A DNA stretch of 36,743 bases, from contig JAYTSD010000015.1 of assembly GCA_043745805.1 (NCBI GenBank), positions 1 to 36,743 of the forward strand, in the 5' to 3' direction. This stretch comes from Fibrobacteria bacterium. GTDB lineage: Bacteria > Fibrobacterota > Fibrobacteria > UBA11236. The notes beneath the pieces were generated by a model. That model was not told the DNA's origin. It saw nothing but the letters and a program-made list of their open reading frames with translations, and searched no databases. Positions 1 through 36,743 of the stretch are shown here, piece after piece; within the stretch, counting starts at the first letter, position 1; the number at the start of each line of letters is the position of its first letter. The position numbers and the translations under genes were made by a program.

Positions 1-53
1 TCATTGAAGCATTTATTCCTGAATCCAATGGAATGAATGCTCTCAAAGACTGA
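1..53 (+). CDS. Partial CDS (3' end only) of an unidentified multicopy protein, ...IEAFIPESNGMNALKD*
   Basis: Frame from nt 3 reads IEAFIPESNGMNALKD-TGA(51-53). It is the exact reverse complement of 36477-36529, the 3' end of the ORF running off the right window edge. Confidence 0.65.
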   Translation, partial: IEAFIPESNGMNALKD

Positions 54-56
54 CTT

Positions 57-223
57 TAATACGTAAGGTCGCCGTGACCGGACTACACATGCGTTTAGAG
101 GGGGTGGCCGAGAATCACGCGAGTTAACACTAACATTTCGTTCACATTCGACAGGCTCAGTGAACAAATGGCTCAACGACCGTGTTGACTCGTGAAGTCG
201 AGGCCAGGGGAAGGCCTTCCCCT
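57..223 (+). ncRNA. Candidate structured non-coding RNA or element end (copy A)
   Basis: Conserved stem CGC-GTGA/TCACGCG enclosing invariant CACATGCGTTTAGA; long variable hairpin GCGAGTTAACAC/GTGTTGACTCGT (119-193); terminal palindrome AGGGGAAGGCCTTCCCCT (206-223). Transcription and strand are not demonstrated. Confidence 0.4.
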
Positions 224-241
224 ACTAATAAATTTTAGACA

Positions 242-275
242 CAAAAATGCCCCACTTCTTTTGAAAGCAGGGCAT
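242..275 (-). terminator. Rho-independent terminator for the 296-1696 gene
   Basis: Minus strand reads ATGCCCTGCTTT-CAAAA-GAAGTGGGGCAT followed by TTTTGT, about 20 nt after the stop codon. Confidence 0.65.
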
Positions 276-1696: not shown

Positions 1697-2028
1697 ATAT
1701 TCTCCGGCTAATAGTCCCCCGACAAATCGATCCCACCTTAATCAATTTACCGACCATCCTTGATTGGACAGCGGTTCAATAATAATGCCACCTGTAAAAT
1801 TACGCTGAATGTTTTTGCTTTAACACATCTTTTCTCCTCTTCCCCGCTATATCTAAAATCCAGATATTGATTTTCAGGGTTATAAAAAGCATTGATTCGA
1901 TAAATCCAGCCCATTTAAAGAATTATACGTAAAATAACCCACAAATAAGCTCAAGCTTATCAACAAGAAAGGCATTATTTTAATCGCAAGGCGAGGTGAC
2001 AATCTCTAGGATTTTAGGACAAGGAACT

Positions 2029-3729
2029 ATGAAAAACTCAATCCATAAACTTGTAATTTTAGGCGGAAGCTTTATTTTGACTTCGCTGATTTCCTTAACC
2101 TCTTCAGCTGTTGTCGATTTAGGAACTTATAAAGGCTGTAACCTGAAAGATACCGATTTTGTCGCCGTCCCGCTTGCTTTAGTTTCCACAAAAGTTACCG
2201 ATCAACCTTTAAAAATGGCTTTCGACCTAAGAGAAAATAATCAAGTCGATGTTTATTTCGTCGAAAGATTTGGCATAGTTAAAAAATACGATGCCATTAA
2301 AAAAACAGTGGAGGTATTAGGAGAAATTCCTGTCATCCATAAAAATGAAGAAGGACTGCTAGGCATTGCCGTTGATCCCCATTTCAAAAAAAATCACTTT
2401 TTATATTTCATGTATTCTTTTCAGGGCTTGGACACCAACTTTCGCATTTCCAGAATACCGCTTGGAAACGATGGCTTACTTAATTTAGCGGCGGAAAAAG
2501 TTTTAATCAAAATTCCAGGCAAAACAATATTACCGCATACCGGTGGCGCCATGCTATTTGATGCTTATGGCGATTTATGGGTAGCCATGGGAGACAATAG
2601 CTCTCCCGAAGCAGGCCCAGCCAATACCGCCGATTTACGTGGGGGTATCATGCGTATTCATCCCGATGAATTGGATCCCAAAGGTTACACTATTCCCTCG
2701 GGAAATTTCGGTGAAACTTTTGCTGCCTATTTTCAAGCCCAAGGAAAAGCAGATTTAGCTAAAGATTATTTGAATCCCGTCAAAGTTCGTCCCGAAATTT
2801 ATGTGAAGGGTACCCGTAACGCCTATTCCCTATCGGTAGAGCCTGTACGACGCTGGGTCTCTTGGGGCGATGTCGGTCCCGATATGGGCGGTATTTCCGA
2901 AGAACATAATTTAGTGAAATCTCCTCAATACACTGGTTGGCCCTATTTTGCAGGGCAAGTAGATGTAACAACCGTGTACGGTTTTAATTGGACGAAAAAG
3001 GATCGTGCGGCGCCAATGAATACCACCAAGATAAATGGTGTTTCGCAATTGCCTCCTAATCATGAACCAATTCTCCCTCGTGACCGAGCTTGCGCAATGA
3101 ACGGGCCGGTATTTCGTTATGATGGCAGCAACCCTGCACTTAATCAAATTCCTCCCAATCTGGATCATAAATGGATTATTGGCGATTGTAATGGTAGTTA
3201 TGGCTTTCGTATACTTAGTCTCAATGATAAAGCAGATACCATTGTGCAAAATGTTCGTGTTTTCGATCGCTTCAGTGCAGCCGTACTCGTGGATATGCAG
3301 CAAGGCCCCGATGGCGCTTTGTATTATATCGGCTGGCAAAGTGGCGTGTATCGTGTGGATTATAAAGGCTCCTGTAAAGACCCTAGTTTTATTGCGGAAA
3401 AAACGGGTTGTGCCGATTCGCATGATGCGAATTATGATCCTAAAATCAATCCCGCTTATCATGATCCGCGCTTATGTGCCAGTGGCACGGCGATACAGCA
3501 TATCCATCCCGCTAAAGAATGGCTTACCCTAAATGATCGTAGCATTGCCATTAATGCTAATGGTTGGCATGAAATCAGTATTTTTGATATACGAGGTTTA
3601 CAGATTTATAAAGTGAGTGGTTACGGAGCAAAAAGTTATGCTTTGCCTAAGTTACCTTTGGGTGTTTATCAATTGTTAGCCAATTCTTCTCAAGGAACTT
3701 ATTCCGCCAAGCTTTCTCGATTACATTAA
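2029..3729 (+). CDS. Secreted PQQ-dependent sugar dehydrogenase (GSDH family) with C-terminal T9SS-like tail
   Basis: ATG 2029 follows AAGGAAC (ORF track starts at 1996); motifs EEGLLGIAVDPHF, HTGG, IYVKGTRN and GPDGALYY; C-terminal IFDIRG...LPLGVYQL. Confidence 0.85.
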   Translation: MKNSIHKLVILGGSFILTSLISLTSSAVVDLGTYKGCNLKDTDFVAVPLALVSTKVTDQPLKMAFDLRENNQVDVYFVERFGIVKKYDAIKKTVEVLGEIPVIHKNEEGLLGIAVDPHFKKNHFLYFMYSFQGLDTNFRISRIPLGNDGLLNLAAEKVLIKIPGKTILPHTGGAMLFDAYGDLWVAMGDNSSPEAGPANTADLRGGIMRIHPDELDPKGYTIPSGNFGETFAAYFQAQGKADLAKDYLNPVKVRPEIYVKGTRNAYSLSVEPVRRWVSWGDVGPDMGGISEEHNLVKSPQYTGWPYFAGQVDVTTVYGFNWTKKDRAAPMNTTKINGVSQLPPNHEPILPRDRACAMNGPVFRYDGSNPALNQIPPNLDHKWIIGDCNGSYGFRILSLNDKADTIVQNVRVFDRFSAAVLVDMQQGPDGALYYIGWQSGVYRVDYKGSCKDPSFIAEKTGCADSHDANYDPKINPAYHDPRLCASGTAIQHIHPAKEWLTLNDRSIAINANGWHEISIFDIRGLQIYKVSGYGAKSYALPKLPLGVYQLLANSSQGTYSAKLSRLH

Positions 3730-3742
3730 CGCTGATCTCAGC

Positions 3743-3794
3743 TTCGTATGTTTTGTAGGGGCACGACATTTTGTGCCCCTACAAAACATACGAA
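3743..3794. repeat. REP-like GTAG-type palindrome (perfect 22-bp stem, 8-nt loop)
   Basis: TTCGTATGTTTTGTAGGGGCAC-GACATTTT-GTGCCCCTACAAAACATACGAA; closely related to 36335-36407. Confidence 0.8.
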
Positions 3795-3902: not shown

Positions 3903-4673
3903 TTATTTTTTTAAATAAACACTTTTGGACAAATGCATTTTATTGCTTATGACGCTCGGAATTATTCTTCCGCTCGCATCAAACATTTTTGTTGTAGAGG
4001 AAGGCATCGATTGACCTTTCAATCCTTGGTTAATACCCACGCCAGTAGCAGGCTGTAATTCTACATAATTAATATTGTAACCCGACTTAACAATTTTCCA
4101 CTTAATTACAGCCATCCCTGCTTTCAAAGTAATTTGTCCTGCATTTTGCACATAATCCCAATAATGATAGCATTCTGGAGGAGGACAGGGTTTAGGATAA
4201 GGCATGATTAAGGCGCCGGAAGAAACCGAGTCAGTTCCTTGAAAAGCATCTACTTGAAAAGACACGTTGTCACCTTGCACTCCTACCATTGCGCTTATAT
4301 AATAAACACCAGCTTGCTTAACATCGACTGTGAATTTCAAAAATTCATTGTTAACTAGCCAGCCCCAATAAGGATCTCCAGGTACTGCATTTTTTATGTT
4401 GGTGGGAACATTTGGATCAGTAGTTTTAACTGGATCTAAATCTACATCTCCGTCAGCAGCGCGAACCTTATAACCGCCAGTAACACCTGTGTCACTATCG
4501 TACCAAGCGATATTTTTAGCTCCTTTGTCATATCTTTCGGGCCTTAAAACGCCGGGCACTGCTTGCGCTGAATCATGATAGGGTGTGCCGGTATAACCGA
4601 CAGGTACCTGCGCTTGTGTTAGTGTTACAAAAATGCCGCCTATTACAGCGGCTGAGAATAAAGAATGGTGCAT
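3903..4673 (-). CDS. Secreted carbohydrate-binding protein (CBM6-like) with basic C-terminal tail
   Basis: Signal peptide (...LTQAQ); VPGVLRPERYDKG...AWYDSD, GWLVNNEFLKFTVDVKQAGVY and NINYVEL; tail MFDASGR...VYLKK. Confidence 0.7.
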   Translation of the reverse strand: MHHSLFSAAVIGGIFVTLTQAQVPVGYTGTPYHDSAQAVPGVLRPERYDKGAKNIAWYDSDTGVTGGYKVRAADGDVDLDPVKTTDPNVPTNIKNAVPGDPYWGWLVNNEFLKFTVDVKQAGVYYISAMVGVQGDNVSFQVDAFQGTDSVSSGALIMPYPKPCPPPECYHYWDYVQNAGQITLKAGMAVIKWKIVKSGYNINYVELQPATGVGINQGLKGQSMPSSTTKMFDASGRIIPSVISNKMHLSKSVYLKK

Positions 4674-4732: not shown

Positions 4733-7465
4733 TTATTGGGTAACCTCCGCCGTTTCAGAATCGGCAGGAAGGGCATTATTTGTTTCCTCAATATTTTCTT
4801 CTGTGTCTTCTTCGCCACCTTCCGAAGGCGGCATTTCGAAATCACCTACGGAAAAATGATAAGAGAATTGTTCACCGGCATTGACGCCAATAAATAAATG
4901 CGTATAGGATTTTGCTTCCGCCATGCCCGCTAAAATTTGGCGAGAGATTTCTGGCATTAAGCGTTGATCAATAATGGTATCAATATTGCGCGCACCGCTT
5001 TGGGATGTTGTGCAGAGCATCACGATTTTGCGGACAACTTCGGGCGAGACGGCGAAGGCAATTTTATGCCTTTCCATCAAGCGTTTGCCCACTTTCATCA
5101 ATTTCAAGAAGACAATACGTTTTAAGGTTTCGGTATCCAAAGGCAAGAAAGGCACTACTTTACAGCGCGCTAATAATGCTGGTGCAAAATGATCGGTGAG
5201 CTCTTGTAATATATTGCGACGATAATCATCTAGAGTATAATTTTGGTCGCTTTGCGCAGCCATGGCGGTAATGGTATCGAGCCCTAAATTACTAGTCATA
5301 ATAATAACAGTATTGCGGAAGCTAATGTCGCGGCCTTCGCCATCGCGTAACATACCTTTGTCGAATACTTGATAGAACATATTGAGAATATCTTTATGTG
5401 CTTTTTCAACTTCGTCGAGAATCACCACGGTATAAGGACGTTTACGCACGCCTTCCGTGAGCACGCCACCTTCACCATAGCCCACATAACCCGCGCTAGC
5501 GCCTTTGAGTTGGGTGATGGACATACTGTCTTGATATTCTGACATATTAATAGTCACAACGGATTTTTCACCGCCGAAAAGAATATTGGATATGGACAAA
5601 GCCACTTCAGTTTTACCAACGCCAGAAGGACCCGTAACCAGAAAAACACCCATAGGGGCTTCGGGATTGGTGAGGCCTAATTTGGCGGTACGTAAGGTAG
5701 AGGCAATTTCGTGAACACCTGCGCTTTGGCCTACTACTTTAGCATTAATGGTTTCTTCTAATTCTAATAAAGCTTGCGCTTCATTTTTAAGCATACTGCC
5801 AACCGGAATACCCGTCCATTCGGCGATGATTTGAGCAATCACGTCTTTGGATACATGGGCATGCACCATGGCTTCTTCGCCTTGATGGACTTCGAGTACT
5901 TTCCATTGAGCATCTAAATCGGCGCGTAAGGTTTTGGCTTCGTCGGAGCCAGCTTCGGCATTGGCAATTTTTTCTTGAGTGGCGATAATTTTTTTTACCA
6001 ATTCCAATTCTTTTTGCCATTTGGTGGTCATGGCTTCTGCATCGGCTTTAGCTTGCACTAATTTTTCGGCGGTGCGTTCTAAGGCTTCGACATCTTTAAG
6101 AATACCGGCTTTATGATCTTTTTCTAGAGCGATAATTTCAATTTCTAAATTGCCAATCACTTGTTCCAAATTGATGAGCACAGGTGGCTTGGCAGTTAAC
6201 CCCATTTTCACGCGGGCTGCGGCTGTATCTAATAAGTCCACGGCTTTATCGGGTAATTGACGACCGGCAATATATTTATGCGATAAATCGCAAGCGGCTT
6301 GTACGCCTTCATAAGTGATTTTTACACCATGGAATTTTTCGTAATGGGTGCGTACACCGCGTAACATAATCGCAGCTACTTCAGGAGTGGGTTCATCGAT
6401 ATGTACCATTTGAAAGCGACGTGCCATAGCGGGATCTTTTTCAAAGTATTTACGAAACTCAGTCAGCGTAGTAGCCGCTAGGATTTTTAATTCCCCACGC
6501 GCCATTTCTGGTTTCAATAAATTGGCTGCATCCCCTTTGCCTTCATCGCCACCGGCGCCAATCATTGTATGCGCTTCATCGATAAATAAAATGACGGGAA
6601 CTTCGGAAGACTTTACTTCTTTAATCACGCCTTTAAGCCGATTTTCAAATTCACCGCGCATACTCGCGCCGGCCGAAAGCAGGCCTAAATCCAAGCTGCG
6701 TATTTCCACATTCTTCAACATGTCCGGTACACGGCCTTCAGCAATGCGCAAAGCCAAGCCTTCGATAACCGCTGTTTTACCTACACCGGCTTCGCCTACC
6801 ATAATGGGATTGTTTTTACGACGACGGGAAAGAATATCAATCATTTGTCTTATTTCATCATCGCGACCAAATATAGGGTCGATTTTTCCTTGACGACCCA
6901 TTTCGGTAAAGTTAATCGTGAAGCGAGCTAAATTGGAACCTTCTGCGGCAGTACCTGCTTGCGTGCGACCAGCGCCTTTAGCCGAGCTTTCAGTTTCCTT
7001 GGAGCCAGCAAGCATTTCGGCGAATTTTGCGAGTAAAGTGTCATAAGAAATAAGTGCGATTTGATCGGATAAACTGGGGGAAATAGCATTGGGATTCTTT
7101 TTCAAAGCCATTAAAATAGCCGCCGTGCGAATTTCGCTTTCATTGAGGTTTAAAGTGGATTCGGACCAAGCATATTCGAGAATGCTCACAAACTGTGGAG
7201 AGAAGGTCGGCTTACCCGTATTTCCCGTACGCAGGTCTCTCAATTCCTTTTGCAAAGCGCCTTTAAATAAGCCGGGATCGATTTTGAAATAGGAGAGTAT
7301 AAAAATCAAATCGCCATGACCTTCTTCTAAGGCTTGTGCGAGTATATGTGCAGCCGTTACCTCATAATGGGAGCGGCTTACACAAGCGCCGACAGCGCCT
7401 TCTAATAAGGCTCGATTATATTTATTGAGCTTCTCTAATAAGACGCGTACCGATTGAGCTATCAT
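4733..7465 (-). CDS. tssH: ClpV/TssH-type AAA+ ATPase (type VI secretion sheath disassembly family)
   Basis: Two Walker A motifs (GEAGVGKT, GPSGVGKT); ClpV-like N-terminus LEGAVGACVSRSHYEV; LDLGLLSAGASMRGEFENRLK, GYVGYGEGGVLTE and SGARNID. ATG 7465 follows AGGGGAAAA (ORF track starts at 7507). Confidence 0.85.
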   Translation of the reverse strand: MIAQSVRVLLEKLNKYNRALLEGAVGACVSRSHYEVTAAHILAQALEEGHGDLIFILSYFKIDPGLFKGALQKELRDLRTGNTGKPTFSPQFVSILEYAWSESTLNLNESEIRTAAILMALKKNPNAISPSLSDQIALISYDTLLAKFAEMLAGSKETESSAKGAGRTQAGTAAEGSNLARFTINFTEMGRQGKIDPIFGRDDEIRQMIDILSRRRKNNPIMVGEAGVGKTAVIEGLALRIAEGRVPDMLKNVEIRSLDLGLLSAGASMRGEFENRLKGVIKEVKSSEVPVILFIDEAHTMIGAGGDEGKGDAANLLKPEMARGELKILAATTLTEFRKYFEKDPAMARRFQMVHIDEPTPEVAAIMLRGVRTHYEKFHGVKITYEGVQAACDLSHKYIAGRQLPDKAVDLLDTAAARVKMGLTAKPPVLINLEQVIGNLEIEIIALEKDHKAGILKDVEALERTAEKLVQAKADAEAMTTKWQKELELVKKIIATQEKIANAEAGSDEAKTLRADLDAQWKVLEVHQGEEAMVHAHVSKDVIAQIIAEWTGIPVGSMLKNEAQALLELEETINAKVVGQSAGVHEIASTLRTAKLGLTNPEAPMGVFLVTGPSGVGKTEVALSISNILFGGEKSVVTINMSEYQDSMSITQLKGASAGYVGYGEGGVLTEGVRKRPYTVVILDEVEKAHKDILNMFYQVFDKGMLRDGEGRDISFRNTVIIMTSNLGLDTITAMAAQSDQNYTLDDYRRNILQELTDHFAPALLARCKVVPFLPLDTETLKRIVFLKLMKVGKRLMERHKIAFAVSPEVVRKIVMLCTTSQSGARNIDTIIDQRLMPEISRQILAGMAEAKSYTHLFIGVNAGEQFSYHFSVGDFEMPPSEGGEEDTEENIEETNNALPADSETAEVTQ

Positions 7466-7645
7466 TTTTCCCCTGTTTCGCTTTAAGATTGTAGGCCAAG
7501 CACCCATTTGACCATAAAGATCAAATGAGGATTAACCCAAAAATTCACCTTAAAAGTTAAATAATAATGCGCTTAGCCAAGAGAAAGAATTGGCGTGTAT
7601 TCTAACATTATCCTACTAAGAAAAGGGTTTTTGCAAAATAAAGGC

Positions 7646-36301: not shown

Positions 36302-36472
36302 AGGGGAAAGCCTTCCCCTAGCCTCGGCTTCCCTTTTTCGTATTTTGTAGAGGCACGTTTGTTTTTCGTAGGGGCACAAAATTTTATGCCCCTACGAAAA
36401 ACGAAAACGCGTGATCCTCATCTACCCCATCTAAACGCATGTGGGGTCAAATCACAGCGCCCTTATGTATTA
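36302..36472 (-). ncRNA. Candidate structured non-coding RNA or element end (copy B)
   Basis: Same conserved stem and CACATGCGTTTAGA core (here with ACCCCA/TGGGGT pairing), variable long hairpin, and terminal AGGGGAAGGCTTTCCCCT. Confidence 0.4.
36335..36407. repeat. REP-like GTAG palindrome with an extra half-copy
   Basis: GTTTTTCGTAGGGGCA/TGCCCCTACGAAAAAC perfect 16-bp stem (36361-36402), preceded by TTTTCGTATTTTGTAGAGGCACG. Confidence 0.8.
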
Positions 36473-36476
36473 AAAG

Positions 36477-36743
36477 TCAGTCTTTGAGAGCATTCATTCC
36501 ATTGGATTCAGGAATAAATGCTTCAATGATCAAAGTGTTGCCTTCCACAAAAATATTATGTCTTAGTGAAATAAAATCGGATTCAATTTCTAGTTGATGG
36601 GGCGATAGATATTTTAATGCGAATAATTTTCTTTCCTTGGGCAAGGGGTGTTGTCCGGAATTATGTTTACACAATTCGGAGACATAATGAAAGAACTGGT
36701 CAATCAGCGAAATTTTACCGAAGAATTCAAACGGTTTGTGGTA
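36477..36743 (-). CDS. Partial CDS (C-terminal 88 aa) of an unidentified multicopy protein, open to the window edge
   Basis: Frame open from 36743: YHKPFEFFGKISLIDQFFHYVSELCKHNSG...IEAFIPESNGMNALKD*. Confidence 0.7.
   Translation of the reverse strand, partial: YHKPFEFFGKISLIDQFFHYVSELCKHNSGQHPLPKERKLFALKYLSPHQLEIESDFISLRHNIFVEGNTLIIEAFIPESNGMNALKD

Follow-up and report, generated by a model that had tools for sequence, protein, structure and literature searches.

A dispersed folded repeat with an insertion-tolerant stem in a Fibrobacteria genome and its relatives

Inverted copies at the two ends of the window

The window, by which we mean the whole stretch of DNA analysed (36,743 nt), is the entire contig C15 of a 50-contig, 3.95-Mb assembly with 40% GC and 99% completeness; its genome is labelled G000 here, C-numbers are contigs of that genome and L-numbers are loci. 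The two ends of the window are inverted copies of one arrangement, copy A at 57-223 (+) and copy B at 36302-36472 (-), and the common architecture given in a preliminary description of this DNA is present in both: the last codons of an open-reading frame and its stop are followed by an extension of ~43 nt, a 5′ arm, an unrelated middle, a 3′ arm and a GGGG/CCCC hairpin. A 30-nt pattern covering the 3′ arm and the hairpin has exactly two matches, 194-223 (+) and 36302-36331 (-), and none in 100 dinucleotide shuffles, so the observation of two look-alike copies is real.

At the left end, positions 1-53 (+) hold the 3′ end of a 148-aa open-reading frame (stop codon 51-53); the first 99 nt of the window are identical to C3:1686-1784, and the full gene lies on C3. 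Copy A begins with a subfamily-specific 5′ extension (57-99, +), which contains a hairpin (61-94), and continues with the 5′ arm (100-121, +), made up of a G-run, the 5′ strand of a helix P1 with its internal-loop GA and the base of a second helix, P2. The variable P2 cassette (122-193, +) is a long hairpin whose apical part is a REP-like hairpin of a family we call family 1 (motif 147-166), and it is followed by the 3′ arm, which is the 3′ strand of P1 (194-206, +; GAAGTCGAGGCCA), and by the hairpin P3 (207-223, +), GGGG-loop-CCCC and then T. In P1 of this copy T198 pairs with A113, giving an A-U pair where other copies have G-C. Copy B, entirely on the (-) strand, comprises a 5′ extension of the same subfamily (36430-36472), the 5′ arm (36408-36429), a variable P2 cassette (36332-36407) built on a family-2 REP-like palindrome (core 36368-36395) with ~22 extra nt before the 3′ arm, the 3′ arm itself (36319-36331; GAAGCCGAGGCTA) and P3 (36302-36318). 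As first described, the variable segments (122-193, 72 nt, and 36332-36407, 76 nt) are unrelated, giving no mutual alignment, yet occupy the equivalent position and each fold as a hairpin. The 5′ extension includes CACATGCGTTTAGA, which had been called invariant; it is indeed in both window copies, but only 4 of the 22 copies in the genome have it (C15a, C15b, C21 and C4), and it is the 3′ strand of the separate hairpin at 61-94, in which the C4 copy has a single compensatory change. The conserved 5′ arm is GGGGTRGMYGAGGATC (101-116), missed as a distinct unit in that description.

Next to copy B lies a remnant of the 148-aa open-reading frame (36477-36646, -), its last ~52 codons and stop; an insertion sequence cuts the frame, and homology to C3 ends at ~36646. 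The left end of this insertion sequence (36645-36743, +) is outside the element and is given as context. We take it to be IS3-like because its first open-reading frame, which starts at 36688 (MKELVNQRNFTEEFKRFVV...), resembles typical IS3 OrfA starts; its final 40 nt are found at 6 contig ends in all, the others being on C5, C9, C10, C17 and C48, and its interior is absent from the assembly.

The element is found far from the open-reading frame that precedes it here. A covariance model (R1), built after fuzzy matching of the arms from an alignment of 18 copies of this genome (A2), gave 22 matches at E<1e-4 on 19 contigs, together ~0.06% of G000, and only three of them are 3′ of the 148-aa frame (C15:100-223, C15:36302-36429 and C21:100-239), which itself has no Pfam family match. 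Contig C3 (L170:1-1784) is a 1.8-kb repeat unit with a partial PAAR-domain gene, a HTH (Cro/C1-type) gene and the 148-aa frame, and it overlaps both the left end of the window and contig C21 by 99 nt. The C3 repeat unit and a ClpV/TssH gene at 4733-7507 together hint at duplicated accessory cassettes of type VI secretion; the 36.7-kb contig is bracketed by inverted copies. The element adjoins the 148-aa frame because a duplicated cassette of PAAR gene, HTH gene and small open-reading frame carried it along, and it is not an RNA partner of that frame.

A conserved core and its variable stem

Read 5′ to 3′ on the G-rich strand, the element consists of (A/G)GA, GGGG, the 5′ strand of P1, P2, the 3′ strand of P1, and P3, the last being GGGG, a loop, CCCC and then T; P1 is interrupted by a purine-rich internal loop and encloses P2, an open-ended stem. 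In the 18 G000 copies of A2, 85% of cells pair. The P1 pair of columns 7-161 has 10 copies with G-C and 7 with A-U, and at one P3 pair four Watson-Crick types and one G-U occur. In a second alignment (A4) of 49 copies from several genera, which were fitted to the model and hence lean towards it, 85% of cells pair and double-sided changes occur at 13 of the 17 pairs; none of 500 shuffles came up to the score of the real alignment, and when the partners were displaced by 1-3 columns pairing fell to 44-59%. An independent parse of 57 copies gave GC 41, AU 10, CG 2 and four non-pairs at one P1 position, and CG 39, UA 13, UG 3 and two non-pairs at the next. P1 and P3 covary; the foldable, covarying scaffold that the two window copies had hinted at was found once further copies were aligned (18 from this genome, 49 multi-genus, 57 parsed).

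Relatives carry a further hairpin upstream, P0, which is readable in all 20 of the G081 copies with closing pairs GC..GC, UA..UA and AC..GU. RNAalifold did not recover P0 from a MAFFT alignment of the region, in which the variants are offset from one another by one column, which explains the miss, and a crude hairpin detector flagged 41 of 70 copies vs. 112 of 350 shuffles; the case for P0 is therefore mainly the reading of the 20 G081 copies.

The two strands are not equivalent. The conserved arms are non-palindromic and purine-rich on one strand, and in 62 of 71 copies it is the G-rich strand that gives the better fold. These features are more in keeping with a strand-specific RNA than with a symmetric DNA repeat. 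However, the number of G-U pairs is even between the strands (96 vs. 98), and the missing excess on the G-rich strand counts against a structured RNA and for an element acting at the DNA level.

P2 varies freely in length. Among G000 copies the arm-to-arm distance across P2 is 29-131 nt and the smallest copy measures 61 nt overall; whole elements in relatives are 46-126 nt, and the minimal copies of 46-56 nt retain the core alone. Three loci (L218 and L219 in G081, L150 in G033) have P1-P2 replaced by a short, conserved TGGAGAGCAACGAAGTGCGAACCA-like segment between the G-run and P3, a variant conserved in two genera. Only the base of P2 is constrained, so its tip can be as small as a 3-nt loop or as large as a composite hairpin of >100 nt. 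At this base TCACGCG is the 5′ strand, and its partner in copy A and most others is CGTGA just 5′ of the 3′ arm. The preliminary description had instead proposed a CGC-GTGA/TCACGCG stem, which competes with this pairing and prevails only in the lowest-energy fold of copy B, the copy with ~22 extra nt separating P2 from its 3′ arm; it is not the conserved pairing of the family.

In G000 two REP-like families recur in P2. The hairpin of family 1, whose loop reads TTCGAC..GCTCAG, has 30 matches in the genome, 8 of them inside 7 elements; the palindrome of family 2 is GTAG-headed, measures 28 nt and is found at 18 loci, three of them inside elements. As the elements make up so little of the genome (~0.06%), both families are strongly concentrated in P2, and the alternative raised at the outset, a tolerant loop that collects REPs, is supported by these 8 of 30 and 3 of 18 occurrences and by exchange of P2 contents at an orthologous locus (below). 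A free-standing family-2 palindrome lies in the window (3755-3782), between the convergent open-reading frames 1996-3729 (+) and 3903-4673 (-). The family-1 motif often occurs as inverted pairs ~50 nt apart, with a cluster on C46 (C4:119192-119260, C1:5480-5538, C17:220503-220587, C43:5275-5345 and C46:1561-2158). Its loop is also conserved in Fibrobacter-type hairpins, so it may be a second conserved module. One further G000 copy of the element is split by another copy of the insertion sequence seen at the right end of the window, placed in the centre of its family-2 palindrome (C11:1-142 and C5:9060-9160), with an apparent 3-bp duplication.

Distribution, turnover and gene context

R1 matched 13 of 40 relatives, other genera and families included, where the consensus is GGGGGTAGCGGAAGAC ... 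GGCTGAAGCGA GGGGGAGGCTTCCCCCT, preceded by P0 and a GGGGCGTT-like run. With a second covariance model (R2), built from 49 aligned matches, 110 of 151 genomes of the class matched. Genus g16 matched in every one of its 62 genomes, and a genome gave up to 26 matches among the 27 candidates scored in each. In a phylum sample at E<=1e-4, 86 of 151 genomes matched, other classes included; by family the counts were 6/8 in f9, 15/39 in f15 and 3/4 in f16, and none in f12 (0/8) or f18 (0/4). Copy number among relatives runs from 0 to more than 25. These tallies and A4 include one unpublished genome, G021 (one match and one row), and no claim depends on it alone. The sampled phylum is probably Fibrobacterota; the fibro-slime domain was found in 4 of 4 genomes tested vs. 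0 of 14 controls, and Fib_succ_major has 81 matches in G081. A link of the element to Fib_succ_major proteins was considered and rejected, as these are upstream in 5 of the 25 top loci but in only ~1 of 25 copies in G081. A degenerate 17-mer of the 3′ arm, searched against wider genome contigs, gave, among the matches listed, only chance ones in GC-rich genomes. The 2.9 million viral contigs of IMG/VR contained one match (L220), on a 10.8-kb contig, which speaks against a mobile DNA element; L220 carries an exact Fibrobacter-type 3′ arm and P3.

Copies change both within and between genomes. G000 copies have common arm variants absent from relatives, a sign that copies have been amplified or have undergone gene conversion inside lineages. 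One and the same composite element is present at non-homologous loci of different genomes (L156/L164 by alignment, L193/L194 by reading) and synteny breaks coincide with element edges; both count as repeat-like behaviour and also agree with a DNA-level element. Orthologous copies with matching neighbour proteins were also found (L142/L143, L147/L152 and L193/L197), and L179/L180 are identical; compensatory changes at two of these orthologous loci (L193/L197 and L142/L143) are as expected of a selected structure. The turnover is clearest at an orthologous locus: upstream of an aminotransferase-like gene (named from its translation) in six g16 genomes, the flanks share 86-98% identity and the element is present in all six with no empty site. 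Three of these genomes have a P2 of 14 nt and two have one of about 75 nt, REP-like hairpins have been added between P3 and the arm or just beyond P3, and in one genome P1-P2 is deleted between the two G-runs. As the element is kept in all six genomes while its hairpins vary, the locus is stable and the hairpin modules come and go. The element ends are alike in inverted orientation over only ~5 nt (by eye). In G081, a single contig with 25 copies, 11 are on the plus and 8 on the minus strand in the first half and three on each in the second, with the origin assumed near position 1; a replication-strand bias, seen in G067, was on this assumption not seen in G081. On the one contig of G067 (G067:C1) 10 of 14 matches are on the plus strand within 0.65 Mb (0.4-1.05 Mb), a cluster that may be a local expansion; the contig has five Y1-transposase matches.

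The element lies in mixed orientations relative to genes. Among 68 copies, judged by crude ORF calls of 80-90 aa or more, 13 are tandem sense, 18 tandem antisense, 20 convergent, 14 divergent and three undetermined, and the neighbour genes are diverse (gyrase, CPSase, TonB-dependent receptor, GH43, AbiEii and others). Only two of 45 copies have a sigma-70-like site in the 125 nt before them, the consensus being of the E. coli type, which may not fit this phylum. The sequencing runs listed as containing the organism are four DNA runs of one sediment-metagenome study. P3 as a canonical intrinsic terminator was rejected: a terminator scan did not flag it as a hairpin with a T-run, and most copies lack a T-run after it (about 8 of 25 Fibrobacter-type copies have one 3′ of P3, by reading). 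A hairpin with a T-run does lie at 247-275 (-) in the window, where it is the canonical terminator of a PQQ-dehydrogenase-like gene (296-1696, -) convergent with copy A; ordinary intrinsic terminators are thus used in this genome.

Relation to known repeats and candidate roles

Enterobacterial REP/BIME sequences are dispersed, intergenic, imperfect palindromes that form mosaics of conserved and variable modules in tens to hundreds of copies per genome; they are often at gene ends and between convergent genes, serve as insertion sequence targets, are species-specific and are tied to the RAYT (Y1) transposase. The present element is likewise a dispersed intergenic mosaic, an insertion sequence target and often located between convergent genes. 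However, its arms are non-palindromic, purine-rich and conserved across the phylum, and G000, G081 (25 copies) and G035 (16 copies) have no Y1 transposase, which was found in G067, G019 and G051. BOX of Streptococcus pneumoniae, boxA-boxB(n)-boxC, is not known beyond a narrow species group; it shares with our element constant end modules, a centre variable in content and length, a stable fold and placement in either orientation near genes, yet its sequence is unrelated, and in our element the variable part is a stem tip that hosts unrelated hairpin families. ERIC/IRU is similarly an imperfect palindrome kept beyond one genus with internal insertions at fixed sites, but is not known to have a separate conserved 3′ hairpin or G-runs, and the two differ in sequence and architecture. 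Integron attC resembles our element as a folded site with a variable centre just 3′ of an open-reading frame; attC conserves structure over sequence, whereas the arms of the element are strongly conserved in sequence, and attC was rejected as the 22 copies are scattered over 19 contigs and not arranged in cassette arrays.

We conclude that the element is a dispersed, folded, non-coding mosaic repeat of the REP/BIME-like kind with an insertion-tolerant stem, with many intergenic hairpin copies and exchangeable modules. In its favoured form, which we consider somewhat better supported than not, it would be a cluster of co-transcribed hairpins and a platform for a host factor, kept and reshuffled in the manner of a repeat. 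The constant core is the G-run, P1 with its purine-rich internal loop, and P3, with P0 upstream in relatives; the P2 tip is mostly filled, in G000, by the two REP-like palindrome families that also stand free. What was first called a swappable cassette is the unconstrained P2 tip, whose contents change as hairpins are inserted or deleted and, probably, as copies recombine. The element would work in folded form, as nucleic acid that is most likely transcribed together with the ends of adjacent transcription units, whichever way it faces, and in a role similar to that of REP/BIME or BOX: a stable hairpin cluster and a putative docking site for some conserved host factor that recognises the internal loop of P1. 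Three observations sit less easily with a repeat. The ~50-nt core is conserved phylum-wide, far deeper than is usual for REP-type repeats, which suggests a specific function or partner; the strand asymmetry of the arms and of folding favours RNA; and the compensatory changes at retained orthologous loci imply selection on the structure.

These same observations lead to the best of the rival explanations, a possible but clearly less likely one, namely a small structured RNA class made from the G-rich strand, either as its own transcript or cut from longer ones, that serves as a ribonucleoprotein scaffold, a protein sponge or a self-cleaving ribozyme and whose P2 would be dispensable, like the peripheral stems of many ribozymes and riboswitches. 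Three covarying helices, conserved nucleotides mostly in junctions and the internal loop, phylum-wide conservation, minimal 46-56-nt copies that are core only, the more stable G-rich strand (62 of 71 copies) and the compensatory changes at orthologous loci all agree with such an RNA. However, promoter-like sites precede only 2 of 45 copies, most copies have no T-run after P3, there is no G-U excess on the G-rich strand, and a copy number of 0 to more than 25 among relatives, with copies homogenised within a genome, is the behaviour of a repeat. CsrA is excluded as a partner, and with it a CsrA-sequestering sRNA, since it was not found in the element-rich G081 and G035 (16-25 copies) and is present in the element-free G004. 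A resemblance to the hammerhead or the kink-turn, judged by eye, was dropped because the core positions do not fit and there was no Rfam match. Rfam 15 gave no family match in the window at the gathering threshold, and at permissive E-values nothing recurrent in the first 300 nt, 16 loci of this genome, 20 of relatives and 20 of G081, so an RNA class, if it is one, would be new. The idea of a conserved, folding scaffold with a swappable cassette, outside the known Rfam families, is supported. Literature searches found no description of the element; supplements, which could list a discarded candidate, were outside their scope. Fibrobacteres intergenic regions are named among those screened in passages of Weinberg et al. 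2017 (PMC5737381), and in PMC2864571 the passages that matched are confined to the reference list. The most specific form of the RNA explanation we put forward only tentatively and as unlikely: the core (G-run, P1 with its conserved purine-rich loop, P3 and, across most of the phylum, P0) would be an undescribed functional RNA class of Fibrobacterota with up to 25 or more copies per genome, a ribonucleoprotein scaffold or self-cleaving ribozyme whose P2 carries cargo hairpins.

Rather improbable is an element that works at the DNA level, its hairpins in single-stranded or cruciform DNA being read by a transposase or recombinase, as a non-autonomous mobile element or a recombination hot spot. 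The occurrence of one composite element at non-homologous loci in different genomes, synteny breaks at element edges, hairpin modules inserted at several junctions, equal G-U counts on both strands and a 36.7-kb window contig bracketed by inverted copies would all be accounted for. Against this stand the lack of a Y1 transposase in G000, G081 and G035, the 25 G081 copies without strand bias (again with the origin assumed near position 1), terminal inverted repeats not beyond 5 nt by eye, the absence of an empty site among six genomes at one locus and the single match in 2.9 million viral contigs.

The preliminary description had favoured a guide- or template-bearing RNA (omegaRNA, bridge RNA, retron msr-msd), or a DNA end read by an HUH enzyme, serving the upstream protein. 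This proposal is not supported, and guide or template function for the adjacent protein is now very improbable. A constant scaffold and a variable segment do lie directly 3′ of a repeated open-reading frame, and OMEGA guide RNAs, IS110 bridge RNA and retron ncRNA likewise combine a constant folded scaffold with a variable segment. However, that frame (148 aa, no Pfam family) precedes only 3 of the 22 copies, the copies are unlinked to any one gene, the variable segment is an internal, self-paired palindrome that also stands free elsewhere, and the partner enzymes are absent. In G000 (99% complete) neither the TnpB zinc-ribbon domain (PF07282) nor the IS110 recombinase (PF01548) nor a reverse transcriptase (PF00078) had a match, which speaks against IS110 bridge RNA and retron msr-msd; IS200/IS605 ends, like a REP-RAYT system, are disfavoured by the lack of a Y1 transposase in G000, G081 and G035; for a TnpB omegaRNA, in addition, 19 of 22 copies are away from the open-reading frame and the variable part is internal and self-paired, not a single-stranded terminal guide.

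On the favoured reading of a reshuffled hairpin repeat, Fibrobacterota, which include major rumen cellulose degraders, appear to have an unnamed, phylum-wide and undescribed folded repeat family. It turns over like a repeat and yet keeps a small asymmetric core deeply conserved, two traits seldom seen together. For annotation, the element accounts for broken contigs, for the points where synteny is lost and for seemingly "conserved" sequence 3′ of unrelated genes in Fibrobacterota genomes with copies. If the core is a functional RNA or a protein-binding site, each such genome would offer ~25 natural variants of it with a built-in insertion-tolerant stem.
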